This document shows positions 15,314-15,402 of a stretch of DNA of 64,000 nucleotides, one piece after another. The position numbers were made by a program, and so were the translations under genes. Origin of the DNA: a virus (taxonomy: Duplodnaviria; Heunggongvirae; Uroviricota; Caudoviricetes); the IMG/VR virus record IMGVR_UViG_3300021254_000022, positions 4,857 to 68,856 of that record, one strand, 5' to 3'. The notes below the pieces were generated by a model. It made no database searches. It saw only the letters and a program-made list of their open reading frames with translations, and was not told the DNA's origin. Every line of letters starts with the position of its first letter. Within the stretch, counting starts at the first letter, position 1.

Positions 15314-15402
15314 TGGGGATTAGCGTAGCGGTAGCGCACCGGTCTCTAAAACCGTAAATGCCTCTGAAGCAGGTAGCCTGGGTTCGAATCCCAGATCCCC
15401 AG
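15314..15402 (+). tRNA. amber-suppressor tRNA, anticodon CUA, with a tRNA-Gln-like body plus a 22-nt variable-region insertion
   Basis: anticodon arm CCGGT-CTCTAAA-ACCGT; acceptor tggggat/atcccca (U1-A72, G2-C71, G3-C70), G73; D-arm and T-arm close to E. coli tRNA-Gln; variable region AAATGCCTCTGAAGCAGGTAGC. Confidence 0.7.

Follow-up and report, generated by a model that had tools for sequence, protein, structure and literature searches.

A conserved hairpin resembling the tRNA-Gln anticodon loop in the variable arm of a phage amber-suppressor tRNA, with a tRNA-Trp counterpart in opal suppressors

The stretch of DNA analyzed here, 64,000 nucleotides (nt) in length and hereafter called the window, is from a virus of the class Caudoviricetes and covers positions 4,857 to 68,856 of IMG/VR record IMGVR_UViG_3300021254_000022. 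At 15314–15402 on the + strand it encodes an amber-suppressor tRNA of 89 nt, counted with the discriminator base G73 and without an encoded CCA, that was identified by ARAGORN and by a full-length match to the Rfam tRNA family. The anticodon of this tRNA is CUA, and its variable region contains a hairpin that features the anticodon loop of tRNA-Gln(CUG). Judged by comparison of sequences, the insertion is a conserved mimic of the Gln anticodon loop and one instance of a design shared by amber/Gln and opal/Trp suppressors of phages, and this design may be a means of getting a stop-codon reader loaded with the right amino acid. The reading considered probable, if only just, is that the tRNA is an amber suppressor that inserts Gln, and that its variable arm acts as a pseudo-anticodon that restores the anticodon identity lost in CUA.

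ARAGORN places the tRNA at 15314–15403 (+) with anticodon CTA and labels it 'Pyl', a label that arises because the anticodon alone drives it. The Rfam family RF00005 (tRNA) matches 15314–15402 over its full length at 59.3 bits (gathering score 29, E 1e-12), and the alignment places 19 inserted bases in the variable region, with a single non-standard pair, C·U at 27-43. No RNA family other than tRNA was matched at this site in Rfam at E values up to 10. A preliminary description of this DNA had proposed an amber suppressor with CUA in the loop CUCUAAA, and ARAGORN, RF00005 and the sequence itself agree on this assignment, with no different cloverleaf emerging from the ARAGORN and covariance searches. 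The true anticodon loop CUCUAAA is located at 15344–15350 (+), where sequence and cmscan alignment place the anticodon CUA at 15346–15348 followed by A36-A37-A38. The acceptor stem, UGGGGAU/AUCCCCA, contains the pairs U1-A72, G2-C71 and G3-C70, which had been described correctly along with G73, located at 15402. The D arm, GCGU-AGCGGUA-GCGC, has the 4-base-pair (bp) stem and 7-nt loop of a type I tRNA and a normal D loop with GG, and the T arm is CUGGG-UUCGAAU-CCCAG. The anticodon arm CCGGU-CUCUAAA-ACCGU features four pairs and a C27·U43 mismatch (window positions 15339 and 15355), which shortens the stem to 4 bp and is conserved throughout the CCGGU/ACCGU subfamily. In bacteria, 4-bp anticodon stems have been linked to stop-codon reading in a 2026 paper (PMC13092985). 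A single-sequence fold of the window tRNA yields the cloverleaf together with the variable hairpin, at an unremarkable energy (z = −1.29). A tRNA-Pyl identity was ruled out: Pyl-type tRNAs have a 3-nt variable loop, a small D loop and a 6-bp anticodon stem, whereas the window tRNA, with its normal D loop, has five positions in the anticodon stem and 22 nt in the variable region.

The variable region, AAAUGCCUCUGAAGCAGGUAGC, is located at 15356–15377 (+), exactly as claimed previously, and consists of a 3-nt 5′ linker (AAA), a hairpin and a 6-nt 3′ linker (GGUAGC). The hairpin at 15359–15371 (+) has a stem formed by UGC (15359–15361) and GCA (15369–15371) that closes the loop CUCUGAA (15362–15368). 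This loop is a tRNA-Gln(CUG) type of anticodon loop, with a U33 equivalent at 15363, the C34-U35-G36 of the Gln anticodon CUG at 15364–15366 (+), and A37; it is one base apart from the tRNA's own anticodon loop, CUCUAAA. The tRNA-Gln genes of phages from the same loci have the anticodon loops CUCUGAC, CUUUGAC and UUCUGAC. Folding the variable region, as the preliminary description had advised, does produce a hairpin, but the minimum-energy fold of the single sequence prefers a competing register, UGCCU/AGGUA with the loop CUGAAGC. The register UGC-CUCUGAA-GCA was chosen because comparison across the family favors it, and on this comparison the variable arm appears to be a miniature copy of the tRNA-Gln anticodon stem-loop, not a classical long arm. 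The position of the insertion was also considered. An 18-nt bulge between positions 42 and 43 of the anticodon stem, with a downstream G pairing with C27, was ruled out by covariation at 27-43: among family members position 27 covaries as A-U, G-C and G·U with the base directly after ACCG, so the variable region starts at position 44 and is not an anticodon-stem bulge. An intron or other excised segment was rejected as well, since no feature supports it, the site is that of the variable loop, and the hairpin sequence is conserved.

An initial pattern search of IMG/VR returned 64 loci, from which 41 distinct tRNAs were parsed. Members of this family have a variable region made up of a short stem and the 7-nt loop that it closes, Y-U-C-U-G-A-A, and the stems covary (UGC/GCA, GGC/GCC, AGC/GCU, AUC/GAU, AUC/GGU, UCC/GGA, GCC/GGC, ACC/GGU and CAC/GUG). 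The first pattern forced CTGAAG, and the scan was therefore repeated without a loop requirement, using GGTCTCTAAAACC-N(14-40)-GGTTCGA, in which the anticodon arm and the start of the T loop are required and the loop is free. Every scan kept the anticodon stem GGU/ACC and the T-loop start constant, so that the counts refer to a single large sequence family rather than to phage suppressors as a whole, a restriction to be set with the opposing points gathered below. The unbiased scan of viral contigs gave 54 distinct long-arm CUA variable regions. In 42 of them a 7-nt loop N-U-[C/U]-U-G-N-N sits on a stem of 2 bp or more (CUCUGAA in 24, UUCUGAA in 4, UUCUGAG in 3, CUUUGAA in 3, CUCUGAC in 2, and others), and 3 more have near-variant loops (CCCUGAA twice and CCUUGAA once). 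Shuffling the variable regions of the 54 gave a mean of 1.2 qualifying sequences and a maximum of 6, and none of 88 ordinary Ser, Leu and Tyr variable arms from the same loci has a Gln-type loop. Both Gln anticodons, CUG and UUG, occur in the mimic loops; the switches from CUG to UUG keep the Gln meaning, which indicates that the constraint is Gln-anticodon-like and not one fixed motif.

The preliminary description had presented the 22-nt segment as an insertion unlike any tRNA-Gln. Its absence from phage tRNA-Gln stands, as all tRNA-Gln genes of the fetched loci are shorter than 82 nt by ARAGORN and thus none has a long variable arm. The segment is not odd, however, being a conserved hairpin with a Gln(CUG) loop, and it is not a lone case, having an 88-nt homologue in phage phAss-1 and dozens more in IMG/VR contigs. 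The phAss-1 genome (OQ749652, 'Caudoviricetes code 15 clade') has adjacent Sup-CTA genes of 72 nt and 88 nt (L001:2907-3072). The 88-nt tRNA has the anticodon arm, the segment CUCUGAAG and the T arm in common with the window tRNA and differs from it in the acceptor and D arms, while the 72-nt suppressor features a U1·C72 mismatch and no extra arm. The pair may represent two different routes to Gln charging in one genome. In metagenome-assembled genomes (MAGs), Gln-mimic suppressors were seen mainly in Bacillota bins (Acutalibacteraceae, Erysipelotrichaceae and 'Mollicutes').

The structure of the hairpin was examined in 39 distinct hairpins in an alignment anchored on the loop. Position 3 of the loop is C or U, and positions 2, 4 and 5 (U, U and G) do not vary in this set, whose members had been selected for U, C/U, U and G at loop positions 2–5. 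The invariant bases correspond to U33, U35 and G36, and U35 and G36 are the strongest anticodon determinants of E. coli glutaminyl-tRNA synthetase (GlnRS). Closing pair 2 is GC in 17 hairpins, CG in 16, UA in 4, AU in 1 and UG in 1, where at least two closing pairs were imposed by the selection for the anchored alignment and only pair 3 outward is unbiased. Pair 3 is formed in 27 of the 39 (UA 9, AU 8, CG 6, GC 2 and UG 2), with a covariation score of 0.588 compared with 0.215 in shuffles and at most 0.17 with slid partners. The medians of the Gln family are a 5′ linker of 1 nt, a stem of 3 bp, a loop of 7 nt and a 3′ linker of 6 nt. The acceptor, D and T arms vary widely across the family, and the 1-72 pair is U-A, U·U, A-U, C-G or G·U.

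The conservation of the hairpin bears on a simpler explanation, in which the window tRNA is an ordinary supE-like derivative of tRNA-Gln, charged by GlnRS through its acceptor stem and U35, and the insertion is a functionless relic such as a partial duplication of the anticodon loop. The tRNA does contain U1-A72, G2-C71, G3-C70, G73 and G10, the one-base difference between the hairpin loop and its own anticodon loop is compatible with a duplication, there are short Sup-CUA tRNAs that lack the arm, and E. coli GlnRS generally charges phage Sup-CUA tRNAs with Gln (PMC12636597). A relic would decay, however, whereas U-YUG is kept where the other arms have diverged almost completely, the changes in the stem are compensatory, the switches from CUG to UUG preserve the Gln meaning, and a separate family carries the Trp equivalent described below. 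Evidence for purifying selection on the loop is already largely available, and a relic is considered improbable.

The amino acid inserted at TAG was assessed by comparison of proteins. In-frame TAG codons interrupt many + strand genes of the window, including those for PhoH, GT2, a RecJ-like protein, a lysin, AAA_24 and GIY-YIG proteins, and the summed length of open reading frames (ORFs) of at least 100 amino acids (aa) rises from 67.6 to 80.5 kb when TAG is read as sense. For the RecJ-like protein, 26 viral loci were fetched, of which 25 were translated with TAG as X and aligned with the window copy to give 26 sequences. The residue opposite TAG is by far most commonly Q (203 of about 745), and some columns are all Q apart from TAG (Q25/X1, Q21/X5 and Q21/X2); one column that contains a TAG of the window copy has Q16, E4 and X6. 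The TAG of PhoH falls on the Q of the DEAQN motif (PDB 3b85), and one of the two TAGs of GT2 falls on a conserved Q, as had been noted before. The reading of TAG as Gln in this phage clade, which the preliminary description had favored, is well supported by these alignments. The gene directly downstream of the suppressor, at 15423–16067 (+), encodes a signal peptide and an SH3_3 domain and has an in-frame TAG at 15486; this codon lies inside the signal peptide, so expression of the gene should depend on the tRNA just upstream.

The same alignments bear on the possibility that the window tRNA is a type II tRNA with Ser, Leu or Tyr identity conferred by the long arm and G73, in which case TAG would encode Ser, Leu or Tyr. 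The variable region is longer than 10 nt, and G73, G2-C71 and C11-G24 are present, which are also features of tRNA-Ser in E. coli; additionally, genuine Leu/Ser-like CUA tRNAs with the same anticodon arm occur in other contigs. However, the D arm with its 4-bp stem and 7-nt loop is that of a type I tRNA, the variable arm consists of a 3-bp stem and a 7-nt loop between linkers of 3 and 6 nt, the Gln-type loop is absent from all 88 Ser, Leu and Tyr arms, and TAG aligns with Gln and not with Ser, Leu or Tyr. The earlier rejection of a Ser or type II identity was right on the strength of the D arm and of the 3-bp stem and 7-nt loop, and this possibility is regarded as extremely improbable.

The origin of the tRNA body was also compared. 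When the anticodon loop and the variable region are left aside, the closest body among 735 tRNAs is that of the window's own tRNA-Ile(UAU) at 5705–5779 (+), with a similarity of 34 against 20 for the tRNA-Gln of this phage, so the description of the suppressor as having a Gln body was an overstatement. The two tRNAs have the same acceptor positions 2-7/66-71 and the same whole T arm, and differ at 1-72 (C-G in tRNA-Ile(UAU), U-A in the suppressor) and at 73 (A and G, respectively). This result suggests that the phage tRNA genes here arose by duplication or part-swapping. The identity set of E. coli GlnRS consists of a weak 1-72 pair, G2-C71, G3-C70, G73, G10 and the anticodon YUG. The suppressor contains all of the acceptor features and G10, and all but 1-72 and 73 are shared with tRNA-Ile(UAU); what is Gln-like in the suppressor comes down to U1-A72, G73, G10 and the extra loop, since tRNA-Ile(UAU) also has G2-C71 and G3-C70. 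It departs from tRNA-Gln in its true anticodon, CUA with A36, where YUG is found only in the variable-arm loop at 15364–15366, and in its variable region of 22 nt in place of a short loop of 4–5 nt.

If the loop confers amino-acid identity, opal suppressors should carry a Trp loop, and a Trp loop was found. A pattern composed of the anticodon loop CUUCAAA, UCCAAA and the T loop returned more than 120 stretches. An unbiased UCA scan, in which CCA was not required, gave 64 distinct variable regions, of which 30 feature a loop N-U-C-C-A-N-N on stems of 5–7 bp and about 6 more a Trp-type loop with a mismatched closing pair, while most of the remaining ones look like tRNA-Sec. Shuffled UCA variable regions gave a mean of 0.5 and a maximum of 3. 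The linker medians of the Trp family are 4.5 and 3 nt, and many opal-suppressor tRNAs have a Trp-type acceptor end (A1-U72 and G73). The opal family, with the anticodon loop CUUCAAA and the arm loop N-U-C-C-A-A-A, spans loci L135–L301, for example L164:317-367, L174:764-814, L160 and L245.

Suppressor and mimic are paired strictly. The combination of CUA with UCUGAA (Gln) was found in 34 validated tRNAs, counted in the loci of the pattern searches and without a dedicated scan in the same format, and that of UCA with UCCAAA (Trp) in at least 48 tRNAs validated by ARAGORN. For the crossed combinations, CUA with UCCAAA (Trp) was found in 1 validated tRNA and UCA with UCUGAA (Gln) in none of 39 stretches, so that crossed pairs appear to be essentially absent from these sequences.

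The single crossed tRNA, L104:7800-7892 (also L328:14300-14392, from the same phage), is a CUA tRNA with the hairpin GAGGU-GUCCAAA-GCCUC. A normal tRNA-Trp(CCA), whose body is similar, precedes it at a distance of 8 nt. In a SleB/CwlJ-like hydrolase of this phage, the alignment column at TAG contains W in 22, Y in 13, F in 5 and Q in 5 of 45 database homologues. The five Q entries are the closest homologues, and the two that were checked at the DNA level (P0001 and P0005) are TAG codons under table 15; Q at this position is thus a code-15 translation and no evidence for Gln. This one informative column suggests that TAG encodes Trp in this phage, following the pseudo-anticodon and not the amber-to-Gln rule. 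The 13 TAGs in a DUF285 repeat protein of the same phage align with mixed residues. The case of a CUA tRNA with a CCA loop and a TAG at a W/Y/F position suggests re-targeting by a change of loop. It is accordingly put forward, tentatively and as somewhat short of probable, that some natural tRNAs separate the anticodon read by the ribosome from that read by the synthetase, that phages with reassigned stop codons evolved suppressors whose variable arm holds a second loop not used in decoding, with YUG on UAG readers and CCA on UGA readers, and that this loop, as an identity element for anticodon-dependent synthetases, may re-target the amino acid.

Suppressors with other bodies carry no mimic. 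Where the D arm is Leu/Ser-like, long-arm CUA and UUA tRNAs have a variable arm of the classical kind and no anticodon-like loop. Ochre suppressors were represented by only 7 long-arm UUA tRNAs, each with a Leu/Ser-like body and without a mimic. The type II Leu/Ser-like CUA and UUA tRNAs are found in L105–L134 (genome_contigs) and L406–L412, which include Acidobacteriota, Thermoguttaceae and other MAGs and some viral contigs. The anticodon is read by GlnRS and TrpRS but ignored by LeuRS and SerRS, and the mimic-free Leu/Ser-like suppressors fit this difference. As a separate observation, tRNA types that are normally short-armed (Ile-UAU, Lys-UUU, Asn and His) occur in phages at 84–96 nt with extra hairpins in the variable arm (L072:7718-7813, L086:2437-2528, L065:3787-3873, L107:3829-3912, L104:4455-4542 and L048:527-612). 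The extra arms of the Asn (L104) and His (L048) tRNAs feature GAAA tetraloops, and the loop of the Ile-UAU arm of L072 contains GAUAA.

A mechanism can be proposed in which the change of the anticodon to CUA removes G36, one of the bases that the Gln-charging enzyme reads, this enzyme being either GlnRS or, in hosts without GlnRS, a non-discriminating GluRS that starts the GatCAB route. The hairpin would re-present U33-YUG on flexible single-stranded linkers and so compensate for A36. The anticodon-binding domain of the enzyme would be recruited or activated by it, and the real CUA loop would be left free for the ribosome. In opal suppressors, with the anticodon UCA, a Trp (CCA) pseudo-anticodon would follow the same design, as TrpRS is also anticodon-dependent. 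Binding of the hairpin by a synthetase, with a resulting gain in charging or specificity, is what we infer. A Pfam scan of 30 of the window's approximately 60 ORFs revealed no dedicated synthetase.

Besides the fixed anticodon stem of the scans and the closing pairs imposed by selection, several points weigh against a pseudo-anticodon that directs Gln. Many hairpins of the Gln family have stems of only 2–3 bp. An unanchored alignment of 29 members by MAFFT with RNAalifold recovers the acceptor, anticodon and T stems and misses the variable hairpin, and also misses the D stem, so the hairpin stem rests on the loop-anchored alignment. The mimic is not required, as short Sup-CUA tRNAs without the arm exist, even beside a long one in phAss-1. 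Not every TAG falls on Gln: the second TAG of GT2 aligns with N, and in comparison with distant PDB homologues the TAG of an amidase aligns with H and that of a radical-SAM protein with G. Additionally, the monomeric GlnRS lies against the inside of the tRNA L, where the D arm is, and the variable arm emerges on the other side. One enzyme that held both the acceptor end and the hairpin would need a large swing of the linkers or a displaced anticodon arm; the linkers may, by conjecture, give the needed freedom.

The geometric objection to a single GlnRS holding both sites argues for another explanation, in which the hairpin is selected for a role other than aminoacylation and binds a different partner able to recognize an anticodon loop of Gln or Trp type. 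This partner might be a phage regulator of the switch in code, a modification enzyme, a T-box-like leader or a nuclease for which the hairpin is a decoy; alternatively, the arm may tune the tRNA for EF-Tu or for the ribosome against release factor 1 (RF1). The conservation and covariation show selection and not the identity of the partner, and the tRNA-repair-like set of the window (a Thg1-like protein, an AAA_33 kinase, metallophosphatases and a possible RNA ligase) hints at a conflict over tRNA integrity. The strict pairing of CUA with Gln and of UCA with Trp, however, tracks the inserted amino acid, and the Leu/Ser-like suppressors are free of mimics; aminoacylation identity is the simplest explanation of both. 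Two of the candidates face difficulties of their own. A nuclease cut inside the tRNA body would destroy the tRNA, and a loop in the variable arm would not satisfy the distance from anticodon to elbow that T-box leaders measure. A partner other than a synthetase is considered unlikely, though not negligibly so.

The window resembles the replication region of a large phage, with all genes on the + strand, and encodes gyrase B and A, an NAD-dependent ligase, a DnaB-type helicase, a RecJ-like protein, a UvrD-like helicase and DNA polymerase III alpha. Its first 19 kb contain 18 tRNA genes. A promoter-like site, TTGATT-17-TATAAT, is located upstream of the suppressor at 15147–15175 (+) with 10 of 12 consensus matches; such sites are no commoner here than in shuffled sequence, and the evidence from the site is weak. 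Directly upstream of the suppressor, 15209–15306 (+) can form a tRNA-like cloverleaf that was called by no tool. A stem of 9 bp, AAGACGAUU/AAUCGUCUU, closes it; one arm, UUUUUC-CUUCCAA-GAAAAA, presents an anticodon-like loop with UCC, and the T arm, GACGG-UUCGAAU-CCGUC, is perfect and precedes 8 unpaired bases. At L032, the closest tRNA relative, the upstream sequence lacks this cloverleaf. Another tRNA, at 8985–9068 (+), was missed by ARAGORN and scores 34.9 bits with the Rfam tRNA-Sec model, which is short of the gathering score; judging by the anticodon loop CUUGAAA (UGA) and the long variable arm, it may be an atypical tRNA-Ser(UGA). Sub-threshold Rfam matches at 684–763 and 16107–16169 (tRNA, 25.2 and 27.4 bits) and at 9964–10084 (YrlA-like, 29.1 bits), all on the + strand, may be degenerate or unusual tRNA-like genes of the tRNA array.

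The possible tRNA/RNA-repair set is encoded on the + strand at 24814–25797, 26390–27175, 28589–30025 and 32938–34987. It comprises a homologue of Thg1-like tRNA-His guanylyltransferase (E 2.9e-30), an AAA_33 kinase, three metallophosphatases, an HD protein and a 479-aa protein with a weak match to an RNA-ligase-type OB domain. Additionally, 11722–13473 (+) encodes a 583-aa protein that is made up almost entirely of Cys/Gly/Ser/Thr repeats of the CxGC type.

If it holds, the arrangement would be, to our knowledge, the first natural tRNA with one anticodon loop for decoding and another for identity. How a tRNA that reads a stop codon is charged efficiently by host enzymes that read the anticodon is an open question in phage recoding (Borges et al.), to which a built-in pseudo-anticodon would be a direct and testable answer, one that would also account for the observed reassignments being to Gln and Trp. 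The loop triplet would predict the amino acid that a phage inserts at a reassigned stop codon; in at least one phage lineage, public protein sets give TAG as Q where homologues have W, Y or F. It would also offer a ready design rule for suppressor tRNAs in genetic-code expansion and therapeutic read-through, one that has so far been engineered only (PMC7590224).

The window tRNA has much in common with the suppressors of code-15 phages (crAss-like phages, Lak phages, phAss-1 and others), which are likewise phage-encoded CUA tRNAs with in-frame TAG codons aligning with Gln. It has a canonical cloverleaf, CUA in a 7-nt loop with U33, in-frame TAG codons and TAG equated with Gln by comparison. 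Many code-15 phage suppressors, however, are 72–75 nt in length with a normal variable loop, unlike the window tRNA, and no near-identical phage was found in GenBank by megablast with 13.5 kb of the window. Recoding by code 15 and code 4 in phages is well described, as are the suppressor tRNAs that go with it. The amber suppressors of code-15 phages have been called Gln by tRNAscan or alignment, and the variable arm or loop is not mentioned in the reports concerned (PMC10607447, the Borges preprint, PMC12386605 and PMC12636597). In E. coli extracts, phage tRNA-CUA inserted Gln in 28 of 29 cases and tRNA-UCA inserted Trp in 13 of 13 (PMC12636597).

In comparison with type II tRNAs and allo-tRNAs, the window tRNA has an extra arm at the same place, between the anticodon and T arms. 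Classical type II arms, of Ser, Leu, Tyr and Sec tRNAs, have longer stems, loops of 3–5 nt and no fixed sequence. Allo-tRNAs have acceptor/T helices of 8/4 or 9/3 (PMC5389517), and the window tRNA differs from them in being 7/5. Other molecules feature an anticodon-like loop outside a normal tRNA that is read by the cognate synthetase, namely the E. coli thrS operator, the tRNA-like element of human immunodeficiency virus 1 (HIV-1) and the TYMV (turnip yellow mosaic virus) tRNA-like structure; the anticodon-like hairpins of the first two bind their synthetases (PMC9976931). These mimics regulate translation, recruit a synthetase or are the sole anticodon-like loop of a tRNA-like structure, and none of them is a second loop in a decoding tRNA.

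The classical suppressors supE (tRNA-Gln with CUA) and su+7 (tRNA-Trp with CUA, charged mostly with Gln) are charged by GlnRS through U35 and acceptor elements. The arm CCGGU-CUCUAAA-ACCGU of the window tRNA resembles the anticodon arm of tRNA-Trp. Both classical suppressors have variable loops of 4–5 nt and are poorer GlnRS substrates because G36 is lost, whereas the window tRNA adds a YUG loop. The window tRNA thus combines a suppressor anticodon with a 7-nt loop in the variable arm that contains a U33-like U and a cognate sense anticodon. A natural pseudo-anticodon arm of this kind is not described in the searchable literature, which omits most subscription journals, and the only analogue is engineered. 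In that system, an amber suppressor with a copy of the cognate anticodon arm in its variable arm showed better aminoacylation and better specificity, both by way of an anticodon-binding domain (PMC7590224). The engineered system is a synthetic allo-tRNA of His identity used with a HisRS fused to an extra, heterologous anticodon-binding domain; the window design, in contrast, is natural, is built on a 7/5 cloverleaf, serves Gln and has a Trp counterpart, and would presumably act with unmodified host or phage enzymes.

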